A stretch of DNA of 64,000 bases from Bdellovibrionota bacterium (lineage in GTDB: Bacteria > Bdellovibrionota_C > UBA2361 > OMII01). Made by a program: the position numbers and the translations under genes. A model generated the notes under the pieces. That model did no database searches. It had not been told where the DNA came from and saw only the letters and a program-made list of their open reading frames with translations. Of the stretch, positions 1,910 through 40,614 are shown piece after piece. Position 1 is the stretch's first letter. Every line of letters starts with the position of its first letter. The stretch spans positions 51,034-115,033 of the forward strand of contig JBIKLA010000004.1 of the NCBI GenBank assembly GCA_044360075.1, given 5' to 3'.

Positions 1910-3127
1910 TTGGAAGTTGTCATGTTCTCATCGTTCAAGCCCAATTCGTCGCTAAGCTCATCTTCGGCCCATGATGGCCTCAATTCGGCCGTTCAGGGGC
2001 TCCAGGGCGCAAGCCTCCCCCGTCTTGACCGCACTGTGGAGGTGCTCTCGGACGTTAGCAGACAGGGCCGCAAGTCTCTCGATTTCGTCATTAAGGCACT
2101 AGTCACATCGCCTGAGGTGCGGAGCTCCGTGCTTGCAGCGATCAACGAGCACCCATCGCTGCTAGAGTCTCCCAAGCGGCGTGCCGCCATCCTTGAGGCA
2201 TTAACCCCCTTCTCCGACGAAGGCGCGGTTTGCGAGCTGGCAGTCGTCTCGCTTGAGAGCCCCTACCTCAAGGCCTCGGCCCGAACGGTGTCGGCGGCTT
2301 GCGCAATTCTCAAGCCCGCACTCACCTCACTGGACGAAGAGGAGCCAGCCGTCCTCTTTCCCCTTCAGCTTGAGAGGCGAATTCTTAAAGTAGCGGCCCG
2401 GTACTCTCCGGGCGGCGGTGACACAGCCGCCGGAGCGGCGATCCTCCTGCTGCGCGAAACACCGCTTGGCACCCGCATGCAGGACAGCGTCCGCTCTCTT
2501 GCCCGCGACTGGTTCCTTGCTCGAAACCAAGGCAAGAACCCATGGCTTGCGCTCCTGAGCGAGATGCCCTCCAAGGAGAATGTTGCGTTCATCGCGTCGC
2601 TCGCCAGCGGCCGCTTGCCTGGCCCCGGTCTTGCCTCATTTCTGCGCTCCCTGGTCCGAATTCCGGTGACCTTCCATGAAGTCGCTATTACCAGCACTAT
2701 CGTCACCGTGGCCTCACGCCAGATCTGCGCCTACTTCAAGCTTCCTAAGGTCGTATCGAACGCTGCTATCGCCGCCCTCTCGGTCGGGCTCGTGGTCGGA
2801 AGCAGAAGCCTCGCCAATGCGTTCCAGGAGGACGCCATCAATAAGAGCCGCACGTGGGAGCGGGTTGAAGGCATTGCCCTGCTGTCGGCGATGCGCGCAG
2901 CGCTTGGTGACGATCCCTCTAGTGCTGCGCGCTTCTCGGTGCTCAGGATAGTCTCTGCGCTGGAGAAAGCCTCTCGCAGCCGTATGCAGCCGCCCTTCGT
3001 GCGGCAAGCAGCCACGATCGCCCTCTCCGGCGAGGTGCTCGACCCGGTTGATCTGTGGAACCAAACCGTTATTGCCGGCGACTTTGGTGAAGTGCTGCGC
3101 CAGAAGCATCAAGCAGTGCGTCTGTAA
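1910..3127 (+). CDS. hypothetical alpha-helical protein (TTG start, or ATG at 1922)
   Basis: Long ORF of 405 aa with protein-like composition and no recognisable motif. Confidence 0.45.
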   Translation: MEVVMFSSFKPNSSLSSSSAHDGLNSAVQGLQGASLPRLDRTVEVLSDVSRQGRKSLDFVIKALVTSPEVRSSVLAAINEHPSLLESPKRRAAILEALTPFSDEGAVCELAVVSLESPYLKASARTVSAACAILKPALTSLDEEEPAVLFPLQLERRILKVAARYSPGGGDTAAGAAILLLRETPLGTRMQDSVRSLARDWFLARNQGKNPWLALLSEMPSKENVAFIASLASGRLPGPGLASFLRSLVRIPVTFHEVAITSTIVTVASRQICAYFKLPKVVSNAAIAALSVGLVVGSRSLANAFQEDAINKSRTWERVEGIALLSAMRAALGDDPSSAARFSVLRIVSALEKASRSRMQPPFVRQAATIALSGEVLDPVDLWNQTVIAGDFGEVLRQKHQAVRL

Positions 3128-3164: not shown

Positions 3165-3980
3165 CTACGGAGTATGCCGTCCCAATGAGGCTCTTAAGGC
3201 CTGCTGCAGAAGCAGCTGCTGCGCATAGCGCTGGGCCATCTCTCGCCGGTCGCGACTCTCATAAACCTCTTGATAGTCCTGGGTGGTAAGAGCTCCGAGA
3301 GCTGGTGCCCGAATGTCGCGCACTTGGTAGTCGAACCGCCGAAAGTCCTCCCATGGAAGGGCGATGAGGAGGTCCGCATTAAACCGCTCTGCCGTGTAGC
3401 CTTGCCTGGATGCGCACACGCCGGCCGTGCGGCAGCTCTTGTGCGGCTCAAGGCAATGCTCCCGAAGCGAGTCAGGGTCACCTGGTAGCGCCGCGCGGGG
3501 CGAATTTCGAATTCTATGATTAGAGCTCCAGCCGCCGTTCTGCGTCCGGCCGCCCATGTCGAACAGGATAATGCCCCCCGGCCCGGTTTGACGGCTCACG
3601 TCTTGAGCAAAATCCAATGCGTACCGCGAAAGCTCCATGAGGCCAAAGAGCTGAGCCTCGCTCCGCCGGCGCTGCAAGAAGGTAGCAACCGGAACCTGCG
3701 CGCTGCGTTGCTCAAGCATGCGGGAGAAATCCGCCTGGTCGACAGAGCACATCCCAAAATACACCAAGACCTCCCCCTGAATAACCGACAGAAGCTTGCC
3801 CTGATTCCACATGAAGACCTTGTGCAAAAGATCCACGCTGGTGTGTTTAAGCTCCTGGGCGGAGGGAAAGCGAAGGTCGGCGAGAGACGAAGCCCACTCG
3901 GGAATGGAACGGGCATCGTGCTTGGACTCTTCTCCTGCGGTGGGGAGGTTTTTTGACGGCTCTAATCGCGGCGCAAGCAT
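3165..3980 (-). CDS. hypothetical protein
   Basis: ORF of 271 aa. A competing + strand ORF, 3516-3956, is shorter. No motif recognised. Confidence 0.4.
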   Translation of the reverse strand: MLAPRLEPSKNLPTAGEESKHDARSIPEWASSLADLRFPSAQELKHTSVDLLHKVFMWNQGKLLSVIQGEVLVYFGMCSVDQADFSRMLEQRSAQVPVATFLQRRRSEAQLFGLMELSRYALDFAQDVSRQTGPGGIILFDMGGRTQNGGWSSNHRIRNSPRAALPGDPDSLREHCLEPHKSCRTAGVCASRQGYTAERFNADLLIALPWEDFRRFDYQVRDIRAPALGALTTQDYQEVYESRDRREMAQRYAQQLLLQQALRASLGRHTP

Positions 3981-4619: not shown

Positions 4620-7097
4620 CTACTTTTGGTCGATCTTGACCTCGATACGGCGGTTTTTCGCGAGCGCCTCAGTTGAGCCGCCCGAGTCGAGCGGCTGGTA
4701 CTCGCCGTAGCCGATCGCGGCAAGGCGGTGCGGGGGAATTCCCTGCTCAGTCAGGAACTTCACCACCGAGATCGCTCGAGCTGTCGAAAGCTCCCAGTTA
4801 GAGGGGAAGGCGGCGCTGCTGATCGGAAGCTTATCGGTGTGGCCCACGACGCTCAGAATCCAGTCAACATCCTTGGGGAATACCTTCTCCATCTCCTTTA
4901 AAGTTTCGGCGAACTTCATCAGCTCTTGCTTTCCGCCGTCCTGAAGGTCCGCCGATGCTGAGGCGAAAAAGACCTCGGACGCGAAGACAAAGCGGTCGCC
5001 AACGATGCGGATGTCCGGCCGGTTGCTCAGCACCTTCTTGAGCTTGCCGAAGAACTCCGAGCGATACTCTGCTAGCTCCTCTGCCTTCTTGATGAAGGCA
5101 AGGTTGAGCTTCTTGTTAAGGTCATCGATATTCTTGTCCTTCGCGAGACCTTTTGCCTTCTCCTTGTCGATATCAGCCATGAGGAGCCGCAGCTTCGCAT
5201 TGAGCTCGTCGACTTGCTCGCCGATAGCGAGCAGCTGGGCGCTGAGCTCCGCCTTTGACTTCTCGCTGCTTGAGAGCTTTTGCTCATTCGAGAGCAGGCT
5301 CGCGTCTATGCTTTTCTTCTCAGCGAGAAGGCGCTTGTTTTCCCTCTCCCTCTCAGCCAAGAGTACACGCAACGCCGCCAGTTCAGCGGCAAGCTCAAGC
5401 TTGCTTTTTTCGGCGTCTGAGAGCTTCTTCTCCTTCGCCGAGAGGCTGTCGTCGAGCTTTTTCTTTTCTTTGTCGAGCGATCCCGCCAACGCTTCCTTAA
5501 GCGCCAGTGCAGCCCTAAGGTCAGAAAGCTGGGTTGCCAGGTCCCGATTCTCCCTCTCAAGCGAGGCAAGCCTCTTCTCGTTGGCCGATAGGCTTGAGTC
5601 GAGCTTCTTGCGCTCTGAGCTGAGTGCACTCGACTCCTTCTCCTTATCCGCCAAGAGCGAGCGCAGCGCCGCGAGCTGCTTTTCCAGATCAACGTTTTCT
5701 TTTTCGACGATCTCCAGTTTAGCCTCCTTCGTGGCCAGGATGTCAGCGAGTTTCTTCTTGTCGCTGTCGAGAGACCCTGAGAGCTTCTCTTTCTCACTAA
5801 GCGCAAGGCGCAGGGCCGCAAGCTGGGCTGCCAGCTCAATCTTGTCATTCTCAAGATCAGAAAGCTTTTTCTCTTGGGCAGACAAGCTGGCATCGAGCTT
5901 CTTTTTTTCGCCGCCAAGCGAATCCGACACCTTCTCCTTTTCCGCTAGCGCAAGACGCAGCGCTGCCAGCTGTGCCGCAAGCTCAAGCTTGTCTCTATCA
6001 AGCTCAGCGAGCCTCTTCTCCCTTGCCGATAGACTGGCGTCGAGCTTCTTATTTTCTCCCCCAAGTGACTCGGACGCCTTCGCCTTCTCTGCAAGGGCGA
6101 GGCGGAGAGTCTCAAGCTGCGTTGCGAGGTCGAGCTTCTCCTTCTCAAGCTCGGAGAGCCTCTTCTCCTTTGCCGAAAGGCTTGTGTCGAGCTTCTTCTT
6201 TTCGCCCCCAAGCGCCTCAGAGACCTTCTCCTTCTCGGCCAGCACAGCCTTGAGCGCCGCAAGCTGTGCAGCCAGCTCCAAGGTTGCCTTCTCCTTCTCA
6301 GAGAGCTTCTTTTCGCTTGTCGAGAGGCTCTCAGCCAGCTTTTTCTTGTCTGCGTCGAGGGTCTTCGAGAGCGTTTCCTTTTGCAGGAGGGACGCCCTCA
6401 AGGCGGCTAGCTCCGCCGCAAGCTCACGCTGCGCTTTCTCGTTTTCAGAGAGCTTTTTCTCCCTGGCAGCAAGCTTCTCGCCGACCGATGTCTTTTCAGA
6501 TTCAAGGTTCATCGCGAACCTGGTCTTTGTTGATAGCAGCGCGTGCACCGCTCCAAGCTCCTTATCAAGCCGCTGCCTCTCCTTCTCAAGCTCCGAGAGC
6601 TTGGCCGTGGCCTGTGAGAGATCAGTGTCGAGGCGCTTGCGCTGAGCCTCTATGTCATCCAGAGCTCGCTCTTTCGCCCTGAGGGCCGTGCGGATTGAAA
6701 CGACCTCTTCATCGTTTTTCGCCATCTGTTCGGCGTTCTTGTGCATGAGCTCCTCAAGCTCGGCACTGCGGACCCGCGCTGCGTCTGCTGAAGACTTTTC
6801 GGAAGCAAGCGAGGTTGTGAGACTGCGGGCCTGTTGCTCAAACTCAGCTCCTTTTCTGCGGGCCTCCTCTGCCCCCTCTTTCTCGAGGGTAAGTGATGCC
6901 GAGAGCTGCTCAAGCTTCTGGCTCAATTCACCAAGCAAAATATCCTTGTCGTTGACGGCGCTCGACAGGTAGAACTGCGCCGCTACCATGACGAGAAGCA
7001 CGACCGCAATCATCATGAGCATCGACGACAGTGCGTCAACGTATCCTGGCCACACGTCGAAGTGTCGCCGCTTTCCACGCCGGGCTGCGTAGCTCAT
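4620..7097 (-). CDS. MotB/OmpA-family protein with a giant internal coiled-coil repeat region
   Basis: N-terminus DVWPGYVDALSSMLMMIAVVLLVM resembles the MotB plug/TM with an Asp at the TM entry. The C-terminus ...GHTDKLPISSAAFPSNWELSTARAISVVKFL...NRRIEVKI is an OmpA/MotB peptidoglycan-binding domain. About 430 aa of 49-aa heptad-like repeats lie in between. Confidence 0.8.
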   Translation of the reverse strand: MSYAARRGKRRHFDVWPGYVDALSSMLMMIAVVLLVMVAAQFYLSSAVNDKDILLGELSQKLEQLSASLTLEKEGAEEARRKGAEFEQQARSLTTSLASEKSSADAARVRSAELEELMHKNAEQMAKNDEEVVSIRTALRAKERALDDIEAQRKRLDTDLSQATAKLSELEKERQRLDKELGAVHALLSTKTRFAMNLESEKTSVGEKLAAREKKLSENEKAQRELAAELAALRASLLQKETLSKTLDADKKKLAESLSTSEKKLSEKEKATLELAAQLAALKAVLAEKEKVSEALGGEKKKLDTSLSAKEKRLSELEKEKLDLATQLETLRLALAEKAKASESLGGENKKLDASLSAREKRLAELDRDKLELAAQLAALRLALAEKEKVSDSLGGEKKKLDASLSAQEKKLSDLENDKIELAAQLAALRLALSEKEKLSGSLDSDKKKLADILATKEAKLEIVEKENVDLEKQLAALRSLLADKEKESSALSSERKKLDSSLSANEKRLASLERENRDLATQLSDLRAALALKEALAGSLDKEKKKLDDSLSAKEKKLSDAEKSKLELAAELAALRVLLAERERENKRLLAEKKSIDASLLSNEQKLSSSEKSKAELSAQLLAIGEQVDELNAKLRLLMADIDKEKAKGLAKDKNIDDLNKKLNLAFIKKAEELAEYRSEFFGKLKKVLSNRPDIRIVGDRFVFASEVFFASASADLQDGGKQELMKFAETLKEMEKVFPKDVDWILSVVGHTDKLPISSAAFPSNWELSTARAISVVKFLTEQGIPPHRLAAIGYGEYQPLDSGGSTEALAKNRRIEVKIDQK
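5180..6590 (-). repeat. about nine tandem 147-bp (49-aa) coding repeats inside the MotB-like gene
   Basis: Repeated protein unit LSAKEKRLSELEKEKLDLATQLETLRLALAEKAKASESLGGENKKLDAS with variants. Both-strand ORF shadows (Ser-rich + frame) are typical of such repeats. Confidence 0.7.
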
Positions 7098-7098: not shown

Positions 7099-8286
7099 TT
7101 AGTTCACCCGTGGATCGTTTTTCTGGTTATCCGCTGCAATGAGTCGGGCTATCGTCCGGAGCTCATCCCGGAGCAGAGTCGTGTTGTTGTCAGCCGAGTT
7201 AGAAAGCTGCTGGCTTATCTCCTTGAGGCTGATATCGACACTACGGACATGCTCCTCCACTCGGGAAGCATTTGAGGTCATAATAACCTCAGTCAGCTGG
7301 CTAAGGGCCGGTGTCGTCTCGTTTTGAAGCTGCGTGAGCTTAGCGAGAAGCACGTGGTGCGACCTCACGTTATCATTGAGGGCGGCAACGGTCTCTGCGA
7401 GCGAGCGCAGGTGCCCCTGCTCCGAGATCTGATTTTCGTGCTGCTGGCGCATCGTGCGCTGCAGGCGCTCAAGCTGATCGGTAAGGGTTGAGATGAGGGC
7501 CTCGTTGTAGGACCCCGATGCTGGGCCGGCCTGCGCCATAAGCCCTTCAGAGATAGCGGTCCGTCGGCCGAGCCACTCCTCCAGCTCCGCACAAAAGATG
7601 TTCTGCGCGCGGCCGGTTTGGAGGTCTAAGAAACCCAATATGAGCGAGCTTGCGAGGCCGAAGAGCGAGGCGCTAAATGATACCCCCATGCCAAGCAAAG
7701 GCTTCCTGAGCCCCTCCTTGAAGCCGTCGAACACGGTCTTGATATCCCCCTCTCCAACGGTCAGCCCGCCAATCACATTTCCGATTCCCGCTACGGTCTG
7801 GAGGAGCCCCCAGAATGTTCCAAGGAGCCCAAGAAGAATGAGGACGTTCATGAGGTAGCGGGAGAGATCGCGGCTTTCGTCGACACGTGTGAACACGCCA
7901 TCGAGCATCGCGCGCAGGGTCGTTGCCCCAAGGAAGGGCATTGAGTCGTTTTTTTGAAGCACTGACGCAATCGGCACGAGCAGGAAGGGAGGAGCTGAGG
8001 GTGGGACGTTTGCGCCCTTAAAGCTGTGTATCCACCTCACCGACCTATCGATGCGGGATATCTGCCGATATGCAGCGGCAACTCCGAAGGCCAGCGTCAC
8101 AAGAATGCCGGCATTAAAATACGGATTTGAGATGAAGGCCGCGGCGAGCCGTTCATACACCACTGCGCACACGGCCAGGAGCGAGACGGTGAAGATCGTC
8201 ATCGTGAGTCGAGCCATCGTTGGTCTGGTCATAGCGCTTTCTCGTGTGTGTGGTGGTGTCCGCCGGGCCCCATCGCCCCTTGGCAA
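7099..8286 (-). CDS. MotA-like proton-channel subunit (4 TM) with ~140-aa C-terminal helical tail
   Basis: LLGLLGTFWGLLQTVAGI motif of MotA/TolQ/ExbB and four predicted TM segments. The C-terminal tail is Q/L/E-rich coiled-coil-like. The start is probably MTRPTM (about 8232). It overlaps the MotB-like gene by one frame step (7097/7099). Confidence 0.8.
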   Translation of the reverse strand: MPRGDGARRTPPHTRESAMTRPTMARLTMTIFTVSLLAVCAVVYERLAAAFISNPYFNAGILVTLAFGVAAAYRQISRIDRSVRWIHSFKGANVPPSAPPFLLVPIASVLQKNDSMPFLGATTLRAMLDGVFTRVDESRDLSRYLMNVLILLGLLGTFWGLLQTVAGIGNVIGGLTVGEGDIKTVFDGFKEGLRKPLLGMGVSFSASLFGLASSLILGFLDLQTGRAQNIFCAELEEWLGRRTAISEGLMAQAGPASGSYNEALISTLTDQLERLQRTMRQQHENQISEQGHLRSLAETVAALNDNVRSHHVLLAKLTQLQNETTPALSQLTEVIMTSNASRVEEHVRSVDISLKEISQQLSNSADNNTTLLRDELRTIARLIAADNQKNDPRVN

Positions 8287-8435: not shown

Positions 8436-9122
8436 CTACTTGATGTAGCGCGTTGCTGGCAGGCTTGCCTCGGCAGAGAAGGTTTGGTCGGCGTCGACGA
8501 GTCCACTGCTATACCTGATGAGCACGCCCCCCGCGTAACGGACGGGTTCACCCCGGAAGAGGTCCTTTCCAACAAGAACCGAGAACGCGACGTGGCATAA
8601 CGCAAGGTCGAGTTGAGTCGGAAGCTCAAGCTTAGCACTAGCAAAATGAGAGGTGGTGCCCGCCAAGTCCCTGAATGGCTCGTCGACGCCGGGGTCGATG
8701 GCGATCTTGCGCGACCTCCCAAAGCAGTCGCCGTGGGCGCCGCCAAGGATCCACAACTTGAGCATACCCTGATTAATGGCGTGAAGGCCTTGATGATTTC
8801 TGGCTATCTGCTCCGCTTCCGATAGCACTTTGATCGGAGGCACATCCGCTGGAACAACGAGCGACACCCCACATTTCCCGGCCTTTGAAACGTTATAGGT
8901 GGCGATAAAACGGTCGCGAGGCGACAGGCGCAGCCGACATTCCTCAAAGCCTTTTATAGTTATCTCAAGCTGGTCGGACCACTCAGCTGCACCGACATGG
9001 TCCCCTCTTTGTATAGCTCCGTTGAAGCCCTCGGAGAGGCGGTCGGCAGCTTTTTGCAGCTCTCGCTGCGCGGCCCGATACTCGTCCAGTGTTAAGGCCG
9101 TGACGTGCTTTATCTCTCCCAT
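8436..9122 (-). CDS. uncharacterised protein, paralog family P (copy 2)
   Basis: Shares RDRFI...GVSLVVP...NHQG...DLALCHVAFSVLVGKDLFRG...VRYAGGV with ORFs 9127-9900, 16385-17167, 24510-25133 and 58951-59676. Confidence 0.6.
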   Translation of the reverse strand: MGEIKHVTALTLDEYRAAQRELQKAADRLSEGFNGAIQRGDHVGAAEWSDQLEITIKGFEECRLRLSPRDRFIATYNVSKAGKCGVSLVVPADVPPIKVLSEAEQIARNHQGLHAINQGMLKLWILGGAHGDCFGRSRKIAIDPGVDEPFRDLAGTTSHFASAKLELPTQLDLALCHVAFSVLVGKDLFRGEPVRYAGGVLIRYSSGLVDADQTFSAEASLPATRYIK

Positions 9123-9126
9123 AGCG

Positions 9127-9900
9127 CTAAGTCCGGGCTTCTTGCCTGTTTTTATCAGCCTCTATGGTGACCCTCGCGGCGGCCCAAAGGTTCGGGTAGT
9201 GGGCATTGTCATGATAAAAGATCTGGCCAAACCGGCCCGTATCGGTTGCCTGAAAAACACCACCCTCAGCCCTCACCGTTTGCCCCCTGAAGAGGTCCTC
9301 GCCCGTCAGTAGGAAGAATGCCGCATGTGCGATCGCCACGTCCTCGGCTAGGGCCAGGTGCTTTCCTTGGGACTCTAGGACACGCTCTTGCTTCTCGCGG
9401 GTCTTGTTCAGTGTGTCCGGCGCGAGCGCCTCTATTGATATCGTTTGGGGGGTGCTGCGCTTCCGATCAACCCAGCGGTCCGTTATCCAGCGGTTCTCAT
9501 CGGGCGGAAAGTACTTCTTTCCGGTATGGCCCTGAATCAGGGCATCAACGTGAGCCATTACCTCGATGTGAGGCCTTCCTGCGGGCAGCACCAGCGATAC
9601 GCCCGAATCGCCAAACGCCTGCACGTTGTACTTGATGACGAAGTTGTCCAGGCGCGAGAGGCCCCGCCGAAGCTTATCGAGCTCGTCGGCCCGGACCTCA
9701 AGCGAGTCGCACCACGACTGCGCCACGCGTGCATCGCCCGCATGCATCGCCTCTTGAATCTTAGGCTCCGCAGCCTCGAGCTCTCGGCACACCAGCTGTC
9801 TCGCCAGCACGTAGCTAGAGATGATGTCCATCCTGTGTATCGGGTGCTGTATCGGGTCCACAAGTCTCTCTAGGGAATGCCCGTAATGGGGCTGTGGCAT
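9127..9900 (-). CDS. uncharacterised protein, paralog family P (copy 1)
   Basis: GVSLVLPAG...YFPPDE...DVAIAHAAFFLLTGEDLFRG...VRAEGGV. It sits tandem to copy 2 and is co-directional with the MotA/MotB-like pair. Confidence 0.6.
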   Translation of the reverse strand: MPQPHYGHSLERLVDPIQHPIHRMDIISSYVLARQLVCRELEAAEPKIQEAMHAGDARVAQSWCDSLEVRADELDKLRRGLSRLDNFVIKYNVQAFGDSGVSLVLPAGRPHIEVMAHVDALIQGHTGKKYFPPDENRWITDRWVDRKRSTPQTISIEALAPDTLNKTREKQERVLESQGKHLALAEDVAIAHAAFFLLTGEDLFRGQTVRAEGGVFQATDTGRFGQIFYHDNAHYPNLWAAARVTIEADKNRQEART

Positions 9901-16384: not shown

Positions 16385-17167
16385 TTAGGTGCCTGCCGGA
16401 GCCCTTGAGAAGAGGCTGGGAACGCCGGATATAGGCGAGCTTTCTGGGTCAGTGAAGGCTGGCTGCGGCGGCAGGACCCTGATGCCATGCACATAGTCAG
16501 CTTTAATCCTCCAGCCGCTCGTCGCGCAGGCGAGGGCGCTGCCGCCCATCAGGTCACGCCCGTCATTTGCACAGGTGTATGCCGCTAGCACGAGCGCCTG
16601 CTCAATAGCGGGAGCAGGCCGCATCCCCTTGTGGCTGAGGATCTCTTCCTGGGCCAGCCGAGACGCGCCGGTGGTGCCCCGTACCGCGATATCGATCTTA
16701 ATCTCGCGCGGCCGGGATTTCTCGCGCTCCCCTGCCCCACCGAACTTTGCGTACCACTCAAAATCCGGAGGAAATATTACGCCACGCGAGCTGAACCTGT
16801 GCGCAAAGTGCGCATTGAGCGCCCTCATCGCGTCGATGTCGCTGACCTCTGCCGGAATCGTAAGGTTCCACAATCGCGGCCTGAACAGCCCGGCGATGAA
16901 ACCCAGCGAATCCTGCCTGAGGGTCGAGAGTATGCGCTTGGCTGTGGCCAGTTGGCACTCGTCTGGCGGCAGGCTTCCAAGCAGCTCCTCATAGCCAGTC
17001 CCTTGCGTCTCAATCGAGCGATACCAACGCTCGGTGCCCACGAGCTCAACGGCGCGCGTGGCTGCTGCGAGCCGCTCCTGCGCAAGCTGAATCGCCTCCT
17101 GCAGCCGGGGGTCCTCGTCGGGCCGCTCGTGCGGCACGAGCGCCTCTTTTGGGGACAGATCCGTCAT
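16385..17167 (-). CDS. uncharacterised protein, paralog family P (copy 5, His of the AH motif replaced)
   Basis: LWNLTIPAEV...VIFPPDFEWY...ALVLAAYTCANDGRDLMGG aligns with P copies 1-4. Confidence 0.55.
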   Translation of the reverse strand: MTDLSPKEALVPHERPDEDPRLQEAIQLAQERLAAATRAVELVGTERWYRSIETQGTGYEELLGSLPPDECQLATAKRILSTLRQDSLGFIAGLFRPRLWNLTIPAEVSDIDAMRALNAHFAHRFSSRGVIFPPDFEWYAKFGGAGEREKSRPREIKIDIAVRGTTGASRLAQEEILSHKGMRPAPAIEQALVLAAYTCANDGRDLMGGSALACATSGWRIKADYVHGIRVLPPQPAFTDPESSPISGVPSLFSRAPAGT

Positions 17168-17276: not shown

Positions 17277-17760
17277 CTACCCCTGCCGCTTGAGCGCGCC
17301 AGCTGCATCGGCCCACCCCTCCGAAAGCTTCCACAGGCAGAAACTCAAGCCGCGGTGAAACTGAAGGAAATAGCTCGTCCCCGGGGCACGCACCGACTGC
17401 CCCTTCAGCACATCGGCCCCGTCGTGCGTGCATGCGGACGCCATGCACACCAGCGCCACTGCGGTCGTATCGGCCTGTCTCATGCCCCTCTGTGCCGCAG
17501 AAGCCAGCGCTGTACATCGTCCTGAACAAACATATTGGTCGCGTGCGGATGTCGCTCCCGAATTTTTGTGTCGAGCGCCACGAGTGCCTCAATATCCCCG
17601 ACACCTTCAGGGATCGTGAGGCGCCAGAACGGCTGCATGCGCAGGCGCGCGAAGAATCCGAGGCGCTCCTGCTCAAAGGAGCCCAAGATCTGGTCAGCGA
17701 TTATGAGATTGCGCTCCCCGCGCGGAAGCGCGCTGCGGCAGAGCCTCAAGAACGCTCTCC
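17277..17760 (-). pseudogene. frameshifted copy of paralog family P
   Basis: ORF 17480-17749 encodes LGFFARLRMQPFWRLTIPEGVGDIEAL (the middle region of the family). ORF 17277-17483, in another frame, encodes AVALVCMASACTHDGADVLKGQSVRAPG (the C-terminal core). Confidence 0.45.
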
Positions 17761-18042
17761 TCCCCCTCTAGACGGCGAATCCGGCGCTCGGCAGCCTCAA
17801 CATCGCCGCTGGCACACGCCGCCTGAAATCCGTCGTCAACCCGCACCAAGTCGTCGACCCGCACCAGGGGGTCTTGAAGCGATCGCTGGGCCTCGCTGGA
17901 CGCAGCACGTGCGGGAGAAGGTTCGGGCGAATCAAAGATCATAACAGCTTGCGGGCAGGTGTGCTGGATATGGGACGGCTGACCCATGCCTGTTGGCTGG
18001 GGTCGGCGCCGTTGCGACACCTCGCGATCCCTGCCTACGAGC

Positions 18043-18447
18043 CTACGCTGCGCGCGCGGCGTTTTCCGGCATCGTGCAGCGGCCAACGAACGATGCGCCA
18101 GGCTCGATGACGATGACTGGCGTCGAGATGTCCCCGCGCACCTGCGCCGAGCTCATGATTGAAAGCGACTTTGTCGCAGCTGAGTCGCCAACGACCGCTC
18201 CTTCAATCACGATCTCGGTCGCCGAAATACGGCCCTTAACGGTTCCACCGTTTGAGACCGTTACGCGCCCCTGGGAGGTGATTTCACCCTCTATAACGCC
18301 GGCCACCACGATGTCGCCTGTGGCGGCGACGTTTCCCGTGATGTGCGACTCGGTGCCAAGCACGGTTGTCCCTGCCCGCGGAGCCTCGTTGAGGGCGAAC
18401 TTGCCGGTCTTGCCGATCGAATCCGCCACGTTTGCTGCATTAGCCAT
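18043..18447 (-). CDS. bactofilin
   Basis: Repetitive beta-helical motif (GDIVVAGVIEGEITSQGRVTVSNGGTVKGRISATEIVIEGAVVGD) characteristic of the bactofilin DUF583 domain. Confidence 0.85.
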   Translation of the reverse strand: MANAANVADSIGKTGKFALNEAPRAGTTVLGTESHITGNVAATGDIVVAGVIEGEITSQGRVTVSNGGTVKGRISATEIVIEGAVVGDSAATKSLSIMSSAQVRGDISTPVIVIEPGASFVGRCTMPENAARAA

Positions 18448-18456: not shown

Positions 18457-19413
18457 CTACTCCCGAGTTACACTCAAAATATCAACTAGGCGATCGAGCT
18501 CCGCATCTGAAAAGAAGTGAAGCTCAATCGATCCGCCGCGAGCACCGCGGTGTATCGAAACCTTCGTACCAAGCGAATTCCGAAGCCGCTCTTCAAGCTC
18601 AGGGTACTGTGGCGCGGTTTCGCGCCTGCCGCTCACGGGCGCCTTGCGCGGCGACTCAAGCACCACGTCGCGAGACACGATCGACTCTAGCGCGCGCACC
18701 GAGAGGCTCTCGGTGACGACCTTATTTGCAAGGCTGATCTGCGCCACCGGCTCCTTCACGGTCAGGATCGCCTTGGCATGCCCAACGGAGATGCGCCCCT
18801 CGCGCACCATCTCCTGCACAACCGGCGGCAGCCTCAGGATGCGCGCAAGGTTCGACACGGTCGCCCGGTCCTTTCCTACCCTATCAGCGACCTCTTGCGA
18901 TGTGAGCGCAAACTCATCCATGAGCCTCTGATATCCCTTTGCCTCTTCTATGGGGTTGAGATCTTGGCGCTGAACGTTCTCAACAATGGCAACCTCTAGG
19001 GTCTCCTTGTCACTCAATTCCCTAATAACAACAGGTACTTGCGCAAGTCCGGCGCGCAGCGCCGCCCTATAGCGGCGCTCACCTGCGATAATCTGGTACC
19101 CCTCCCCCTGCGAGCGCACAAGGATAGGCTGAAGAACGCCGAGTGCCTTAATTGACTCCGACAGCTCGCCGATCTCTGGATCAGAGAACTCAGTTCTGGG
19201 CTGATTGGGGTTCGGCATGAGCTGCGAAAGCGCCACGAAGGTTACCGAGGCACCCCTCGTCTCGACTAGAGAAACATCGTTTGAGTTTATGGGTTCCTGC
19301 TGAAGCCGCGTTTGAGGCGTTAATGGCACGACGGCCGCGGTTGATACCAGGGCGCTTAACCCCCTACCGAGACCCATCTTGGTCGGCTTCTTAAGTCCCT
19401 TGGCTCCTTCCAT
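18457..19413 (-). CDS. parB: chromosome partitioning protein ParB
   Basis: GERRYRAA ParB box and an HTH region. Adjacent to parA. Confidence 0.93.
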   Translation of the reverse strand: MEGAKGLKKPTKMGLGRGLSALVSTAAVVPLTPQTRLQQEPINSNDVSLVETRGASVTFVALSQLMPNPNQPRTEFSDPEIGELSESIKALGVLQPILVRSQGEGYQIIAGERRYRAALRAGLAQVPVVIRELSDKETLEVAIVENVQRQDLNPIEEAKGYQRLMDEFALTSQEVADRVGKDRATVSNLARILRLPPVVQEMVREGRISVGHAKAILTVKEPVAQISLANKVVTESLSVRALESIVSRDVVLESPRKAPVSGRRETAPQYPELEERLRNSLGTKVSIHRGARGGSIELHFFSDAELDRLVDILSVTRE

Positions 19414-19430
19414 CGAACTACCTCCAAAAG

Positions 19431-19446
19431 TGTTCCACGTGGAACA
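19431..19446. promoter_or_regulatory. parS-like palindrome TGTTCCACGTGGAACA (site 1, in parA-parB intergenic)
   Basis: Perfect 16-bp palindrome. It differs from the canonical parS TGTTTCACGTGAAACA at two symmetric positions. Confidence 0.7.
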
Positions 19447-19447
19447 G

Positions 19448-20242
19448 CTACGCCGCGCGCGCCGTTCCGCTCTTGTCTATACCCAACCTATCGATTAGCT
19501 CGCCAGCGAGCGCCAGGTAGCTCTTGGCTCCGGCGCTTTGCGGGTCGTATGTGCAAATAGGCATCCCATGACTGGGACACTCAGAGAGTCGGATATTTCT
19601 CGGGATCTTGGACTTGAATAGCCTTGCGGAGAAGTGCTTCTCGGCCTCCTCGTGAACCTGCACCGACAGCCGCGTGCGGCTGTCGTACATGGTGAGGAAA
19701 ACGCCAAGAAGCTCAAGCTTCGGATTAAAGGTCTGTTGCGTGAACGCAATGGTATTGAGAAGTCCGCTAAGCCCCTCAAGGGAGTAATACTCAGCCTGAA
19801 GCGGCACCAACACCGAATGGGCGGCCCCGAGGGCGTTGAGGGTGAGAAGGCCGGAGGAGGGCGGGCAATCGATGAGTACAAAATCATACCCCTCGGATAC
19901 CTCGCCTAAGGCGCTGCGAAGGATCAGTTCACGCCCAGGTGACTTTCCGATCTCAAGTTCCAGGCTGACGAGGTCTGCGGAGCCGGGAACAACATCGAGA
20001 CCCGGGATAGAGGAGGGCACTATGGTGCTTGCGAGCTGAATCCGTCCGAAGAAAACGTCGTAGAGGTCGGAACCCTCCGCGTGGCGCTCAATCCCCAGCC
20101 CGCTAGTCGCACTCGCCTGGGGGTCAAAATCTAGTAGAAGAACTTTAAATCCTAGAAGAGCGAGCTGCGCTGAGAGACTTACGGTGCTGGTTGTCTTTCC
20201 AACACCACCTTTTTGGTTCGCGAGGGCGATGATGTGCGCCAT
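19448..20242 (-). CDS. parA: chromosome partitioning ATPase ParA/Soj
   Basis: Deviant Walker A KGGVGKTT. ParA family. Confidence 0.93.
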   Translation of the reverse strand: MAHIIALANQKGGVGKTTSTVSLSAQLALLGFKVLLLDFDPQASATSGLGIERHAEGSDLYDVFFGRIQLASTIVPSSIPGLDVVPGSADLVSLELEIGKSPGRELILRSALGEVSEGYDFVLIDCPPSSGLLTLNALGAAHSVLVPLQAEYYSLEGLSGLLNTIAFTQQTFNPKLELLGVFLTMYDSRTRLSVQVHEEAEKHFSARLFKSKIPRNIRLSECPSHGMPICTYDPQSAGAKSYLALAGELIDRLGIDKSGTARAA

Positions 20243-20330
20243 AGATAGAACCCGTCACCTATCAAGCTTACGGAGGGGTAAGAGGTACCATGAGTCGGAA
20301 TCAACAACAATAAAAAAACGGCGGCGGATC

Positions 20331-20346
20331 TGTTCCACGTGGAACA
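20331..20346. promoter_or_regulatory. parS-like palindrome (site 2)
   Basis: Identical 16-mer TGTTCCACGTGGAACA upstream of parA. Confidence 0.7.
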
Positions 20347-20372
20347 TTTTTCAGGAGAGGGCGAGCTGAAGT

Positions 20373-20388
20373 GTTCCACGTGGAACAG
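20373..20388. promoter_or_regulatory. parS-like palindrome (site 3)
   Basis: Identical 16-mer, 26 bp from site 2. Confidence 0.7.
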
Positions 20389-20407
20389 CGGGCAGGGGTT
20401 TCAAAGG

Positions 20408-22590: not shown

Positions 22591-23229
22591 ATGAAGAAAC
22601 TCTCAGCTATCGCCCTCTCCCTGCTCTGCGCAGGATGCTCGGCAACCCCGTACACTGGTGAGACCATCACCGAGACAACAACCCCGAAGGGGCTTAACGT
22701 CATCCAGACCTCAGCTCGCACGAAGCTCCCGAACGGAGTCCTTGCAGGCGAGGAAAGCGAGCTTCAGGAGATCACTGCAACCGTTGAGTCGATCAGCGCA
22801 AAGACCGGCATGGTCAAGCTTCAGACCCCGGACGGCCGTATCGTTGATCTCAAGGCCGACCCGAAGGCTCCAAACTTCAAGAACGTGAAGAAGGGCGATA
22901 AGCTCGTTCTTGACGTCTATGAGGCCGTCGACTTCGAGGTTCGCAAGCCAACCCAAGAGGAGCTCGCTATGCAGGGCGTTGATGTTGACGTTGCCGCAAT
23001 TGCAGACAAGGGACAGAAGCCGGCTGCTGTTCTCGCATCGACTCGCGTAGACATTCTCACGATCGACAAGATCGACACCAAGAAGGAGACCCTCACGCTC
23101 TCCAACGCGGGAAGCGTCGTAACCGTCAAGGCGAAGTACCCTGAGAACCTCAAGGTTCTCAAGGTTGGCGACACGGTTGTCGTAAAGACCTCAGAGCTGG
23201 TCGCTGCCCGCATCAAGCAGGTAGGGTAG
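22591..23229 (+). CDS. lipoprotein with two tandem beta-rich repeats
   Basis: Lipobox LLCAGCS. Internal duplication (KLVLDVYEAVDFEV and KVGDTVVVKTSELV segments). Confidence 0.65.
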   Translation: MKKLSAIALSLLCAGCSATPYTGETITETTTPKGLNVIQTSARTKLPNGVLAGEESELQEITATVESISAKTGMVKLQTPDGRIVDLKADPKAPNFKNVKKGDKLVLDVYEAVDFEVRKPTQEELAMQGVDVDVAAIADKGQKPAAVLASTRVDILTIDKIDTKKETLTLSNAGSVVTVKAKYPENLKVLKVGDTVVVKTSELVAARIKQVG

Positions 23230-23325: not shown

Positions 23326-24436
23326 CTACTCACTCATGAGCAAGCAGGACTCAATAATCGGATCGAGCTTCCCGTCGAGCACAGCGTGAACGTCTGAGGT
23401 CTCATAGTTGCTTCGCAGGTCCTTCACCATCTGGTAAGGCTGCATCACGTAGTTTCGTATCTGGCTTCCAAAATCGATTTTCTTGCGCTGCCCCTTAAGC
23501 GCATCCATCTTGTCGCGCTGCTGCTCTTGCTGAAGCTCATACAGCTTTGACTTGAGAATCTTCATCGCCCGTGACTTGTTTTTGTGTTGCGACCGCTCGC
23601 TCTGGCACGCAACGACGATGCCACTCGGGATGTGCGTGAGGCGGACAGCCGAGTCGGTCTTGTTGACGTGCTGGCCACCAGCTCCCGACGATCGGTACGT
23701 GTCTACACGGAGGTCGGCCTCATTCACCTCAACTTCGATCTCCTCCTCGATGTCAGGCGTGACGCTGACCGAGGCAAACGAGGTGTGGCGCCGAGCATTT
23801 GAGTCAAAGGGCGAAATGCGCACGAGGCGATGGACCCCGGACTCATTGCGCAGGTGCCCGTACGCGTAGGGCCCCTCGACAAGAACAGTGGCGTTCTTGA
23901 TGCCGGCGCCCTCGCCCGGTTGATAATCCAGGATCTCTGTCGAAAAGCGCTTGTTTTCTGCCCACCGGAGGTACATCCGAAGAAGCATATCGGCCCAATC
24001 CTGGGCCTCCGTTCCACCAGAGCCGGCGTTGATCTCGATAATGGCGTGCTGGCTGTCGAACTCGCAGTTCATCTTGCACTTAAACTCGAGGGCGCCAACG
24101 GCCGCAAGAAGGTCGATAATGGCGCGTTGCGCCTCCTCGACCATCTCCTCGTCGTTTGATTCCTTGATCAGCTCCAAGGCGGCTTCTGCGTCGGCGCGGA
24201 GGCTCTCAAGCTTTTTAAACTGGTCGAGGCGCTCAACGCTCTGCGCGCGCTCGCGCATGATGGCCTTGGCTTTACTTGCGTTGTTCCAGATGTCCCCTGC
24301 TTGAGACTGCTGCTCGAGCTCTTCTACTTTCCTGGTAAGGGTAGGGATGTCAAAGAAACCCCCTCAGGGTCTCAACGCGCTCGCTAAGTCCCTGGAGCTT
24401 GTACTTAAATTCAGATGGCTCAAACACGGTGGGCAT
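23326..24436 (-). CDS. prfB: peptide chain release factor 2 (programmed +1 frameshift gene; frames do not join perfectly in this sequence)
   Basis: Main ORF 23326-24258 is RF2 (GGQ motif; SPF in place of the canonical SPF/SPY tripeptide-anticodon region). The upstream ATG at 24436 encodes MPTVFEPSEFKYKLQGLSERVETLRG..., similar to the E. coli leader ...LTERSDVLRGYL. Confidence 0.85.
24346..24363 (-). promoter_or_regulatory. RF2 autoregulatory frameshift site (SD-like GAGGGGGG + CTT TGA C)
   Basis: The minus strand reads ...CTGAGGGGGGTTTCTTTGACATCC.... The UGA at 24349-24351 is in the RF2 main frame. Confidence 0.7.
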
Positions 24437-24509: not shown

Positions 24510-25133
24510 CTAGCGGTAGCTGGCGGCCATGAGGGCCGGATGAGCCTGCGAGTCGTGCACGAAGAATGCCTTCTCCGTCAGGCCTGCGCAGGTTGCGATA
24601 ATCTGTCCTCCTTCTCCACGCACGGTGTGCGAGCGCAGCCGGTCACGGAACGCATCGCGCCCCTCGGTTGCCAGAAGGATAGCCGCGTGCGCACAGGCGA
24701 TATCTGCGAGATTCGCCATCTTGAGGCCGCGCTCCTTAAGGAATAAAGCCTGCTCGCCCCGAGTCATGCCACTCGAGCCCTCGACGAGGCAATCCACCGA
24801 GACGGCCGTGTCACACGCCACCGGCTTGTAAAACATCGGATCCCGCTCCCATCGCTCAACTTGATCCTGCTGGGCCACGCGGCGAAACGGATCAACGGCG
24901 CACGAGGCGACATGAGCCTGCTTGAGAAAATCGAGGCGAGACGTTCCCGCGGGAATGACAAACGATGCCTCTTTCTGGCCAAGAACTTGAACTTGATATC
25001 TCGCCAGAAGATCCGACTGCTGGGCGCGAGCTTCCTGCGTCGAAGACTTTACAACTGGAGAAGCGCCAACAGTTAAGTTTCGCTCGCGCTCACATGAAGA
25101 ATTTACTTGGCTCGACTGTGTCTCGGTTACCAT
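24510..25133 (-). CDS. uncharacterised protein, paralog family P (copy 4)
   Basis: ASFVIPAG...DIACAHAAILLATEGRDAFR...VRGEGGQI matches the family core. Confidence 0.55.
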   Translation of the reverse strand: MVTETQSSQVNSSCERERNLTVGASPVVKSSTQEARAQQSDLLARYQVQVLGQKEASFVIPAGTSRLDFLKQAHVASCAVDPFRRVAQQDQVERWERDPMFYKPVACDTAVSVDCLVEGSSGMTRGEQALFLKERGLKMANLADIACAHAAILLATEGRDAFRDRLRSHTVRGEGGQIIATCAGLTEKAFFVHDSQAHPALMAASYR

Positions 25134-34273: not shown

Positions 34274-36442
34274 ATGGAGCATCCAATCTCCAAGCTGCTA
34301 CTTGATGTCATGGCGCGCGAAACGCGCAACCGCAGAATCGCGCTCGTACTGATCGGCGCTACAGCCACGTGCGGCGCCGCCGTCATCGCAGTTTCCGTCG
34401 CCCTCTACCCACCAGGCATCGCTCTCGGCGCCTGCGCGCTCGTTGTGGCCTGCCTCGCCGCAGTCTTTAGGGACACCGTCCGACCCCTCTCTGTTTCTGC
34501 CGCTGAGGCGGCGCTCCTCCTCGACAGGACCCTCCCAACCGGCGATCGAGTCGGCGCGCTCTTGCACCTTCAGGCTTCCACCGACCAGGGCGGCGGGCCA
34601 CATGCCCAGCTTATCGCCCACCAGCTCTCAGCCATCCTTGTGTCGGCCCCGCCCGCGCAAGAGATAGCCCCTCTCACGCTCTCGCCGTCCGAGCGCCGGG
34701 CGCGCATCCTGACCCCCCTTCTTGCTGCGGTCTTCCTGCTGCTTGTCACCTTCCGTCCGGTGCCGCCCCAGTTCGCAATAGCCGACAACATCGAATCGAT
34801 CGTCTCAGAAAACCCGTCACTGCCCGCGCCGTTGCGAGAGCAGGCTCTCAATCTCGTCGAGGCCATACGGGAAGCCCCTCAGAACGTTGAGCAGCTGCGA
34901 GATGAGCTTAATCGCACGCGCGACGAGGTTTCACAGGCGCTGAGCGAAATAGGCGGGCGCGGTGATGACGTTGATACCATTCTCAAAAATGAGCAGGCCT
35001 CGCGGCCAGCCCGTAACGTTCCGCAGCAACCGGCTTCCTCAAAGGGCCAGCCTCCCACGCCGACACCGAAACCGAAGGTGCCTTCAGCGCAGCGCCAGGA
35101 GCAGCAGAAGCAGCCATCTGCGCTGGAGGACCGCAGCAACGATACGACGGGCGGGAAGCCGCCGCCGCAAGACAACAGCGAAAGCTCCCAATCGAGCGGC
35201 GACAAACAACAGAATGAGAAGCAGGGCGAACAGGGTGGCTCCGGATCGGGGGCACCCAAGGAAGATTCGGGCAACAGCAACAAAGATGGCGGCTCAAGGA
35301 GCGAGCAGGGGACAGAGGAGAAGGAGTCGCAAGGAGGCGGCGGTTCCCAATCTGGCGACGGAGAGCAGTCCGCCTCGGGCGATTCGCAGCAGGAGCAGCA
35401 AGGCGGAGGTTCACAGGGCCAAGGCTCACAGGGCGAAGGCTCGGGTGACGGCAAGGGCAAGGGCGGACAGAAACCTGGCACCGATGAAAGCAAGGGCGAG
35501 GGGCAAGGGCAGGGAGATGGCGCCTCTCAAGGCAGCGGCTCTGGCGGCAAGGAGGGCGGAGAGAAAAAACCTGGAGGCTCTCGCTCGGAGCGCGGCGAGC
35601 AGGGAAGCGAAAGTAGCTCCTCGCAGGGCGGCGAGAGCGGCTCTCAGGGCCAGTCCCAGGGCTCAGGGCGTGCAGCTAAGGGAGATTCATCTCAACAGGA
35701 CCTTGAGAAGCTCAGCAGCGCACTCAACCAGCTAGAGCAGCAACTCGACCAGGAGCAGCAAAAAGAGCAGGGAGAGGGCTCATCTTCTGCCGGCACCCAG
35801 AAGGAGCAGAAGCAGCAGGGAAAAGAAGGGCAGGGCAAATCACAGCCCCAGGGTGACAAAAGTGGCGAGAAGGGAGCAGGGGCACAAAGCTCAACCCGTT
35901 CCCAATCCGATACGCAGAACCAGAAGGGCTCTGGCGAGCAAAGTGGAGAGAGCCGCTCAAAGAAAGAGGGGCAGGGCAACACCAAGGACGCACAGAGCAG
36001 CGCCCAACAAGGCAGCCCTACCGAGCAAAAAAAAGATGATGGGGTAGGGGACGAGGCTACCTCACAGAAAGGACAGCCATCTAACAGCGACAAGCCGCAG
36101 GAGAGCCCGGAGTCTTCAAGCAAGAAAGATGGCAAGCGCGACAGTTCCGGCGATCGCTCTGCGATGCCCGATCGCAACGCGCCGCCGAAGGAAGGCGGCT
36201 TCTCAGACCGAGACCCCGGACCAGGGCTTGGGGCGAACCAGTCCTTCAACGAGTCAAAGATTGAGGCCCGCGAGGAACAGGTCGACCAGCGATTTACCGG
36301 CGGGGACTCGAGCCTTGAGAAGAGCTCTCAGGAGGCCCAGGCTAAGACGTCGATTGAGGACTTAACGATCGCAAAGCCCAAGAGCTCCGTGCAGCGCGGT
36401 GAGCAGCCGATACCCCTCGAGTACCGCGATCTACTAAAGTAA
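34274..36442 (+). CDS. membrane-anchored protein with ~500-aa intrinsically disordered G/S/Q/E/K-rich tail
   Basis: Two to three N-terminal TM helices followed by extreme low-complexity sequence. It ends ...GEQPIPLEYRDLLK. Confidence 0.6.
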   Translation: MEHPISKLLLDVMARETRNRRIALVLIGATATCGAAVIAVSVALYPPGIALGACALVVACLAAVFRDTVRPLSVSAAEAALLLDRTLPTGDRVGALLHLQASTDQGGGPHAQLIAHQLSAILVSAPPAQEIAPLTLSPSERRARILTPLLAAVFLLLVTFRPVPPQFAIADNIESIVSENPSLPAPLREQALNLVEAIREAPQNVEQLRDELNRTRDEVSQALSEIGGRGDDVDTILKNEQASRPARNVPQQPASSKGQPPTPTPKPKVPSAQRQEQQKQPSALEDRSNDTTGGKPPPQDNSESSQSSGDKQQNEKQGEQGGSGSGAPKEDSGNSNKDGGSRSEQGTEEKESQGGGGSQSGDGEQSASGDSQQEQQGGGSQGQGSQGEGSGDGKGKGGQKPGTDESKGEGQGQGDGASQGSGSGGKEGGEKKPGGSRSERGEQGSESSSSQGGESGSQGQSQGSGRAAKGDSSQQDLEKLSSALNQLEQQLDQEQQKEQGEGSSSAGTQKEQKQQGKEGQGKSQPQGDKSGEKGAGAQSSTRSQSDTQNQKGSGEQSGESRSKKEGQGNTKDAQSSAQQGSPTEQKKDDGVGDEATSQKGQPSNSDKPQESPESSSKKDGKRDSSGDRSAMPDRNAPPKEGGFSDRDPGPGLGANQSFNESKIEAREEQVDQRFTGGDSSLEKSSQEAQAKTSIEDLTIAKPKSSVQRGEQPIPLEYRDLLK

Positions 36443-36513
36443 TTGCGCTCTCTTCGTTGACTGGTCGAGGCAGGTCCGATACCGCCACGGGATGTCTGAT
36501 GCTCGAGCTTGAG
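36361..36513 (+). repeat. direct repeat copy A (covers last 27 codons of 34274-36442 gene plus 68 bp downstream)
   Basis: About 90% identical to 39312-39456. Confidence 0.75.
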
Positions 36514-39311: not shown

Positions 39312-39456
39312 CTTAACGATCGCAAAGCTCCGTGTAACGCGGTGAGCAGCCGATACCACTCGAGTACCGCGATCTTCTAAAGTAATTACGCTCTCTTCGT
39401 TGACCGCTCGAGGCAGGTCCGATGCCGCCACGGGATGCTTGATGCTCGAGCCTTGA
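39312..39456 (+). repeat. direct repeat copy B (degenerate remnant of gene 3' end; 8-bp deletion creates a stop)
   Basis: CTTAACGATCGCAAAG...GAGTACCGCGATCTTCTAAAGTAATTACGCTCTCTTCGTTGAC... matches copy A. Confidence 0.75.
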
Positions 39457-39600: not shown

Positions 39601-40614
39601 ATGACCGACCTTGATATCCGAGACGCTGCCGCCCTCGACAGAGCGATGGGTGACTTCCAATCGTCGTTTGCCAAGATAGAACAAGAGGTCGCTAAGTCAA
39701 TCGTCGGCATGCACGACATAGTACGCGGAGTAGTTTCATCCGTTTGTGCTCGGGGGCACGTGCTCCTTGAGGGTGTTCCTGGCTTGGGGAAAACGCTCCT
39801 AGTGAAATCTATCGCCCAGACGCTCGGCCTCTCGTTTAAGCGCGTGCAGTTTACTCCAGACCTCATGCCCTCCGATGTAACGGGCACCCAGGTCCTTACT
39901 GATGACGCCAGCGGACAGCGGCGGTTTGTGTTCCGGCAGGGCCCCATCTTCGCCAACATCGTGCTCGCTGACGAGATCAACCGCGCCACGCCAAAAACTC
40001 AAAGCTCCCTTCTTGAGGCGATGGAGGAGCGCCAGGTGACAGTACTCGACCAGACCTATCCGCTCCCGCAGCCGTTTTTTGTCCTCGCCACGCAGAACCC
40101 CATAGAGAACGAGGGCACGTATCCCTTGCCCGAAGCGCAGCTCGATCGATTTCTCATGAAGCTCGTGGTCCCGGCACCCTCGGCCAAAGAGCTCAAGGAG
40201 ATCCTCACGCGAACTACCGGCACTTCATCGAGCGAGCTGCGTCCGGTGTTCCCACCCGACGAGGCGGGCGCATACATCGCGTCGATGCAGCGTATCGTCC
40301 GGCACGTCGTTGTGTCCGACCCGATGCACGAGGTCATCGTTCGGCTCATCTCGGCGCTCACACCCTCATCAGAGTTCGCAACGCCGAAGGTCAAGAAGTA
40401 TGCACGCTTTGGCCCAGGCCCGCGCGGGGCGCAGTCACTCGTCCTCGCCGCTAAGGTAAGCGCTCTTCTTGACCGCCGCATCAACCTCTCGTTTGAGGAC
40501 ATCAGGGGCGCCATTAAGCAGACGCTTCGCCACCGGCTAATCTTAAACTTCCAAGCTGAGGCCGACGGCGTAACCACCGATGACCTCATCGAGGAGGTTC
40601 GAAACGCAAAGTAG
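39601..40614 (+). CDS. MoxR-like AAA+ ATPase
   Basis: LLEGVPGLGKT Walker A and MoxR family features. Confidence 0.9.
   Translation: MTDLDIRDAAALDRAMGDFQSSFAKIEQEVAKSIVGMHDIVRGVVSSVCARGHVLLEGVPGLGKTLLVKSIAQTLGLSFKRVQFTPDLMPSDVTGTQVLTDDASGQRRFVFRQGPIFANIVLADEINRATPKTQSSLLEAMEERQVTVLDQTYPLPQPFFVLATQNPIENEGTYPLPEAQLDRFLMKLVVPAPSAKELKEILTRTTGTSSSELRPVFPPDEAGAYIASMQRIVRHVVVSDPMHEVIVRLISALTPSSEFATPKVKKYARFGPGPRGAQSLVLAAKVSALLDRRINLSFEDIRGAIKQTLRHRLILNFQAEADGVTTDDLIEEVRNAK

Follow-up and report, generated by a model that had tools for sequence, protein, structure and literature searches.

What a bacterium does with several divergent copies of one small protein, kept among its housekeeping genes, is the question raised by a 64,000-nucleotide stretch of a Bdellovibrionota chromosome (contig JBIKLA010000004.1; the whole stretch is called the window below). 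Its positions 8436–9900 hold a tandem pair of genes belonging to a protein family, designated here family P, whose copy density is high, with six loci in these 64 kb. In our preferred reading, which is given an about even chance of being correct, the family P proteins would be rapidly diversifying, non-catalytic target-binding modules equipped with a helical hairpin for self-association or docking. A binding module appears to be the best reading of the structural models and of the family history: the fold neighbors of the modeled C-terminal domain are binding domains or scaffolds, and expansion, fast divergence and decay are typical of interaction repertoires. Family P would then be a new family of a fold class that is already known.

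Copies of family P and their inheritance

The initial annotation had proposed five intact minus-strand open reading frames (ORFs) and one disrupted copy as a paralog family with a common architecture, matching no named domain and scattered among core genes as a lineage-specific expansion rather than as a single mobile island. All five ORFs were found at exactly the positions given, on the minus strand, and are intact: P1 at 9127–9900 (an ORF of 257 aa), P2 at 8436–9122 (228 aa), P3 at 16385–17167 (260 aa, divergent), P4 at 24510–25133 (207 aa, a short form) and P5 at 58951–59676 (241 aa). A hidden Markov model (HMM) of the family, built from 142 members and run on the six-frame translation of the window, recovered exactly these five as intact ORFs, with E-values ranging from 3.5e-68 (P5) through 8.5e-63 (P1), 4.5e-55 (P2) and 4.4e-52 (P4, profile positions 67–232) to 4e-35 (P3), and detected no other copy in the window apart from the decayed one described below. 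In the all-vs-all BLASTP comparison five pairs among P1, P2, P4 and P5 were strong (P1-P2 2e-22, P1-P5 2e-20, P1-P4 1e-18, P2-P5 3e-17 and P4-P5 1e-13), with 27–31% identity over 160–200 residues; the P2-P4 pair was weak (about 0.01, 22% identity), and P3 was the outlier, with an E-value of 1e-6 against P1 and of about 0.006 against P2 and P5. Taken together, the BLASTP and HMM scores show that the copies are true paralogs built on one architecture, and the alternative of a resemblance driven by composition was not upheld. P5 is the window copy nearest to the bulk of the family, being the best window match for 97 of the 150 representatives.

The stop of P1 is followed after 4 nt by the start of P2, the two forming a tandem pair. 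The true start of P1 is most probably the ATG at 9831, giving a protein of 234 aa, because the upstream ATG at 9900 is an ATC in the 73%-identical ortholog of locus L001, whereas the surroundings of 9831 are conserved in sequence. A scan for promoters and terminators around P1 and P2 produced nothing informative. P3 lies directly upstream of two genes for ATP synthase b subunits, P4 is flanked by ybeY and prfB, and P5 has gyrB on one side and, on the other, a GDPD gene in convergent orientation. The disrupted copy was located directly upstream of P3, in tandem with it, as P3-like fragments in three reading frames of the minus strand (17280–18152): tblastn with P3 matched 17731–17474 and 17495–17391 (E 4e-11), and the HMM fragments covered 17280–17588, 17483–17767 and 17697–18152. 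Since the same region is also broken, with extra indels, in a 97%-identical strain of another assembly (L002), it is to be read as a decaying pseudogene and not as a sequencing or assembly error.

The scatter among core genes was equally evident: the copies are embedded with native GC content and GC content at third codon positions (GC3), both similar to those of their neighbors, without direct or inverted repeats flanking them, and no relatives were matched in viral contigs, phage genomes or plasmids, all of which indicates native chromosomal genes rather than island or mobile cargo. An origin from a mobile element or island is ruled out by the lack of flanking repeats, the native GC and GC3 and the conserved synteny. 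The order atpC-P1-P2-(MotA-like) was kept in L001, with P1 72–73% and P2 77% identical; gyrB-P5-GDPD was kept in L094, with P5 49% identical compared to 75% for GDPD; and ybeY-P4 was kept in L095, with P4 46% identical compared to 76% for YbeY. Because the orthologs occupy the same positions in relatives, the paralogs are considered old and vertically inherited, and the proposed lineage-restricted expansion agrees both with these shared positions and with the lack of phage, plasmid and viral-contig matches. The family P orthologs diverged roughly twice as far as the adjacent genes, with no consistent pattern of N-terminal versus C-terminal divergence. Both P1 and P2 are nonetheless under purifying selection, the ratio of nonsynonymous to synonymous substitution rates (dN/dS) against the L001 orthologs being 0.22 for P1 and 0.15 for P2, with 0.085 for atpC.

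Tandem pairs or triplets were present in L001, L095, L096, L097 and L098. Their within-pair identity varied from 30 to 84%, with no consistent first-gene or second-gene subtype, which argues for recurrent and independent tandem duplication. An obligate heterodimer of fixed 'a/b' subtypes was, for the same reasons, not supported. The tandem pairs and the pseudogene beside P3 point to a birth-and-death process, in which tandem duplication adds copies and decay removes them. On a distant metagenomic contig (L096, 4370–10625) three family P genes are arranged around the genes of a 639-aa AAA_5-like ATPase and of a 608-aa protein, one just upstream and a tandem pair just downstream of them; this is the sole locus that hints at a functional partner of the family.

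No named sequence domain could be assigned, as anticipated in the initial annotation: the five window proteins gave no Pfam or NCBIfam match above noise and none in PHROGs or PADLOC, a Pfam scan of the 142 aligned and eight longer members was negative, and a sequence profile search of the PDB resulted in coiled-coil noise only for the full length and in no match for the C-terminal domain, without any lectin chain. An exhaustive HMMER profile search over 1.84 billion cluster representatives identified 397 of them at E ≤ 1e-3, of which 266 also passed E ≤ 1e-10; their lengths were mostly 205–260 aa. In 5.8 billion proteins a word-indexed search reached no more than a same-species protein and one 73% ortholog, and even a profile query brought only 2–4 close relatives. 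All 20 representatives looked up were proteins from metagenomes or metagenome-assembled genomes (MAGs), either labeled "hypothetical protein" or unnamed, with "Pseudomonadota bacterium" as the sole taxon label. Eight short family loci came from a metagenome scan, and no match was obtained in the GTDB genomes scanned with family patterns. Family P appears to be confined to uncultured bacteria. No N-terminal hydrophobic segment was detected in 149 of the 150 representatives checked for signal peptides.

Some of the longer members have several domains. P0004 (843 aa) carries the C-terminal domain three times in tandem, separated by Pro/Ala/Ser-rich linkers, and P0028 and P0040 bear extensions without a Pfam match. 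In the N-terminal extension of P0028 (489 aa), at residues about 140–260, the core motifs were recognized by eye a second time in degenerate form, including FLRDSDGGLDI; the HMM scored this part only as a second weak stretch, and the finding suggests an internal domain duplication.

Predicted fold and conserved residues

Most members of family P consist of an antiparallel helical hairpin of ~60 residues and, after it, an alpha/beta domain of ~150 residues at the C-terminus. In the full-length AlphaFold2 (AF2) model the hairpin helices H20-53 and H57-79 precede the alpha/beta domain, and residues 1–14 have a predicted local distance difference test score (pLDDT) below 50; on the minus strand of the window the predicted hairpin of P1 occupies about 9664–9843 and its C-terminal domain about 9196–9654. 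The N-termini of the family are polar, predicted disordered and rich in Ser/Thr/Gln/Pro, and in P4 such a polar, Ser/Thr/Gln-rich N-terminus takes the place of most of the hairpin. The domain modeled alone (residues 83–235, alignment of 123 sequences) reached a pLDDT of 92.6 and a predicted template modeling score (pTM) of 0.88, its elements running from a helix and a beta hairpin through two helices, a strand and two more helices to three strands.

A Foldseek search of the PDB with the C-terminal domain gave nothing significant. The C-terminal domain of Bdellovibrio bacteriovorus Bd2740 (PDB 8oks) is located at the tip of a fiber of the mosaic adhesive trimer (MAT) type. The top structural neighbors, of remote likeness, were Bd2740, Lcl, intimin and invasin, all of them adhesive tips of bacterial surface proteins (PMC10769870). 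In the model, the core of the domain loosely resembles the calcium-independent C-type-lectin-like (CLec) fold; judged from the order of the secondary structure elements, a family-specific insertion of two helices, which bears the most conserved motif, would sit at the position of the long loop of canonical C-type-lectin-like domains (CTLDs).

The motifs put forward earlier were only partly borne out: the shared architecture stood, while x-H-x-G and (Y/I)FPPD turned out to be local to P1 and P3 and not family-wide. The blocks common to the family are F-x-A-x-Y-x-V...V-S-[FL]-V-x-P-x-G-x-S-R, then L-x-x-W...F and I-x-I-D-G-x-V-x-G, followed by K-T-R-x-x-Q...G-L, D-L-A-V-A-[HF]-A-A...A-T-G-x-x-L-F and V-R-A-x-x-G-x-L...G-L, the most conserved motif being K-T-R-x-x-Q-E...G-L...D-L-A-V-A-[HF]-A-A-x-x-x-A-T-G-x-x-L-F. 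The His of the 'AH' position, whose invariance had been in question, is not invariant: His was found in 60 of the 142 members and Phe in 57 (about 40%), and P3 carries Leu. There is no conserved Cys column, and P5 contains no Cys whatsoever. Most of the near-invariant positions have a structural character (P106, W138, A191 and G222), to which R210 (127/141 members), Q171 (121/142) and D187 (118/142, with Glu in 15 more) are added, followed by R168 with 96/142. With His alternating with Phe, no conserved Cys and mostly structural near-invariant positions, the initial hint that conserved His, Cys and Asp denote an enzyme was not supported; its other suggestion, a ligand-binding fold, fits better with the C-type-lectin-like structural neighbors of the modeled domain.

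Possible functions

According to the preferred reading of non-catalytic target-binding modules, family P would comprise small, leaderless, two-domain proteins of a lineage-restricted and fast-evolving multigene family. Their lectin-like head would bind a target, either protein or glycan, without catalysis, different paralogs having diverged toward recognition of different targets, and the N-terminal hairpin would act as a self-association or docking element. The family would grow by tandem duplication and lose members by decay, and its paralogs would be inherited vertically at fixed positions beside housekeeping genes. We infer the binding function, the oligomerization through the hairpin and the cellular location; for the latter we lean towards the cytoplasm, because there is neither a signal peptide nor a conserved disulfide, and the polar, predicted disordered N-termini would also allow export by a leaderless route. 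A confident domain with remote neighbors, combined with high copy density and fast divergence, usually marks proteins of biotic interactions. Lineage-specific families of unknown function are common.

Several observations weigh against this reading. The family consensus lacks the WIGL motif and the conserved disulfides of canonical CTLD/Link modules, as well as the calcium/sugar motifs (EPN/QPD-WND) and the signal peptide of canonical C-type lectins, and the Lectin_C (PF00059), Xlink and FGE-sulfatase (PF03781) HMMs had no match in the five window proteins and the 142 members; at the sequence level nothing places the family in the CLec fold class, which is weakly suggested by the modeled structure. 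Short-form members, such as P4, are without most of the hairpin proposed for oligomerization. No binding partner, secretion system or conserved neighbor gene was found, the neighbors being different at every locus. Finally, the residues S110/R111, D157, K166, R168, Q171, D187 and R210 (P1 numbering) could form an active site.

This last point leads to the alternative of a novel enzyme on a CLec scaffold, FGE/EgtB-like oxidative or otherwise modifying small molecules, with the conserved polar C-terminal residues as its active site. The strong conservation of several polar positions (R210, Q171, D187 and R168) speaks for it; the candidate His is replaced by Phe, as described above, the catalytic Cys pair of FGE is absent along with any other conserved Cys, no enzyme HMM, FGE-sulfatase or other, matched the 142 members, no metabolic neighbor is conserved, and a paralog divergence to about 22–31% identity would be unusual for isofunctional enzymes, all of which makes an enzyme quite improbable. 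A higher, albeit still low probability is assigned to leaderless recognition or effector proteins, exported on a non-Sec route, by type III, type IV or type VI secretion systems (T3SS, T4SS, T6SS) or in a vesicle-like manner, whose lectin-like head would bind surfaces of prey, host or competitors by analogy with the tips of Bdellovibrio MAT fibers or the C-terminal domain of Legionella Lcl. The adhesive tips among the top structural neighbors, the polar and disordered N-termini, the rapid divergence and expansion typical of interaction repertoires and the three tandem domains on Pro/Ala/Ser-rich linkers in P0004 are in line with such a role, which we regard as rather unlikely given that nearly all representatives are devoid of a signal peptide, conserved disulfides are lacking, the proteins are far shorter than fiber adhesins and have no anchor, and no secretion-system genes adjoin any copy. 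The gene of a PilB-like T2SSE ATPase (206–1795) is about 6.6 kb away from P2 and is unlinked to the family at other loci.

Unlikely, too, is a role as cytoplasmic, immunity-like inhibitors of incoming toxins (polymorphic-toxin immunity or 'orphan immunity' repertoires) or of phage proteins, although it would account for small, leaderless, non-enzymatic, multi-copy and fast-evolving proteins and is compatible with a binding-module mechanism. The leaderless proteins of 200–260 aa without a catalytic signature, the many divergent paralogs per genome with recurrent tandem duplication and decay, the orthologs diverging much faster than neighboring genes, and the placement of the L096 copies around the large AAA_5-like ATPase gene all fit; on the other side, no toxin, Rhs, CdiA, T6SS or defense-system gene adjoins any of the six window copies, whose neighbors are atpC, the MotA-like ORF, atpF, ybeY, prfB, gyrB and GDPD, neither PADLOC nor the immunity families known to Pfam gave a match, and the positions are stably inherited and not in islands. 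Housekeeping neighbors were found at the loci of the window copies and of L001, L011, L094 and L095 alike. That the genes serve a diversity-generating retroelement (DGR) as targets, or encode some other kind of programmed hypervariable CLec protein similar to Mtd and TvpA, is hardly credible: among population variants of P1 and of P5 clustered at 90% identity (15 sequences each) the substitutions were few and scattered and the C-terminal core was the most conserved part, no reverse transcriptase was seen among the window ORFs scanned against Pfam, and no template-like repeat of a family gene was among the repeats listed by the repeat scan of the window. The lack of a hypervariable patch in the population variants largely refutes DGR-type diversification.

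Among known systems, target-binding modules of family P would, by analogy, work most like the calcium-independent bacterial CLec binding domains, i.e., the Bd2740 tip, Lcl, the intimin/invasin heads, Mtd and TvpA. However, Bd2740 is a trimeric surface fiber of 627 aa with a lectin tip, in contrast to the leaderless proteins of 205–260 aa considered here, which have an antiparallel helical hairpin in place of the fiber, two extra helices with the signature motif and only 10% sequence identity to it; other MAT fiber adhesins are likewise different, being trimers of about 600–1100 aa with an N-terminal anchor and a variable tip. The helical element is a hairpin and not the parallel trimeric neck found in collectins and tetranectin, which combine a coiled coil with a CTLD. 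From the FGE-sulfatase group of CLec proteins (FGE, EgtB, PvdO, SenA and OvoA) the family is separated by the absence of both a PF03781 match and the catalytic Cys pair, and from the DGR proteins TvpA and Mtd by the absence of a hypervariable C-terminal region, with no reverse transcriptase in the scanned ORFs of the window. The similarity to immunity families of polymorphic toxins, an analogy only, extends to small size, lack of a leader, non-enzymatic character, divergence, multiple copies and tandem duplication with decay; unlike these, family P has no adjacent toxin genes, no match to a known family and a stable placement beside housekeeping genes. The WXG100/ESAT-6-like proteins, characterized by a hairpin of about 100 aa, a W-x-G turn and type VII secretion, also do not correspond to it.

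A bolder version of the target-binding reading, which we consider rather doubtful, is that family P serves an uncultured, deep-branching lineage of freshwater bacteria as its diversified repertoire for recognition. The leaderless lectin-headed proteins would then either be exported unconventionally to bind surfaces of prey, host or competitors or work inside the cell as a set of immunity-like binders directed at toxins or phage proteins that enter it. Ongoing tandem duplication, fast divergence and decay of genes would keep supplying new specificities. If so, a new class of bacterial proteins for interaction or immunity would be built on a new variant of the CLec fold. A binding repertoire would also offer an entry into the ecology (predation, symbiosis, toxin or phage defense) of a lineage known from metagenomes alone, and the C-type-lectin-like superfamily would gain a bacterial branch that is leaderless and independent of calcium. 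Were family P merely a lineage-specific structural or adaptor protein, it would be an ordinary domain of unknown function deserving a database family entry.

Chromosomal surroundings

The window is an ordinary piece of the chromosome of a diderm bacterium, with the atpF'-F-H-A-G-D-C operon, parA and parB together with palindromes resembling parS, a gene for a bactofilin, ybeY, phoH, prfB, gyrB, uvrD, mlaE and mlaF, asmA and a MoxR-DUF58-VWA operon. The same species was found in many lake metagenomes, in contigs of up to 508 kb. Its GyrB had at most 58% identity to GTDB species representatives among the matches listed, the best of which were MAGs labeled Deltaproteobacteria, Binatia and Oligoflexia, and the lineage is for this reason considered deep-branching; at the 80 gyrB loci of GTDB species representatives among the matches listed no family P gene was found nearby. 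Many sizeable ORFs of the window, namely 1910–3127, 3165–3980, 22591–23229, 34274–36442, 41517–43355, 47945–49624 and 56519–58036, had no Pfam match (E ≤ 0.001 or E ≤ 1e-5), which fits a deep-branching lineage.

Downstream of the P1-P2 pair, an 825-aa protein ending in an OmpA domain (4620–7097, minus strand) includes 7–8 tandem repeats of 147 nt (49 aa) at 5342–6600. Its gene is directly downstream of a 395-aa MotA/ExbB-like ORF without a Pfam match (7099–8286), and together they resemble a stator-like pair whose spacer is a long, repetitive coiled coil. The operon at 39601–45907, not linked to family P, is of the BatA/Aerotolerance type and encodes MoxR (AAA_3), DUF58, a 612-aa protein without assignment and a VWA/GATase1-like protein. 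A direct repeat of ~126 nt with 92% identity (36383–36508 and 39326–39451) follows two plus-strand ORFs; the small ORFs overlapping its copies are in different frames, so that it is not a protein duplication, and the repeat had no Rfam match and a predicted folding energy no better than that of shuffled sequence.

The parS-resembling palindrome TGTTCCACGTGGAACA is present in three copies (19428–19448, 20328–20348 and 20369–20389), which flank parA (19448–20242) beside parB (18457–19413). The prfB gene next to P4 (from 24436 down to 23326, minus strand) contains in its upstream part the classic site of programmed +1 frameshifting for release factor 2, CTT TGA C, at 24349–24355, preceded by a Shine-Dalgarno-like GAGGGGG; its frame 0, starting from the ATG at 24436, reads MPTVFEPSEFKYKLQGLSERVETLRGFL up to the stop codon.

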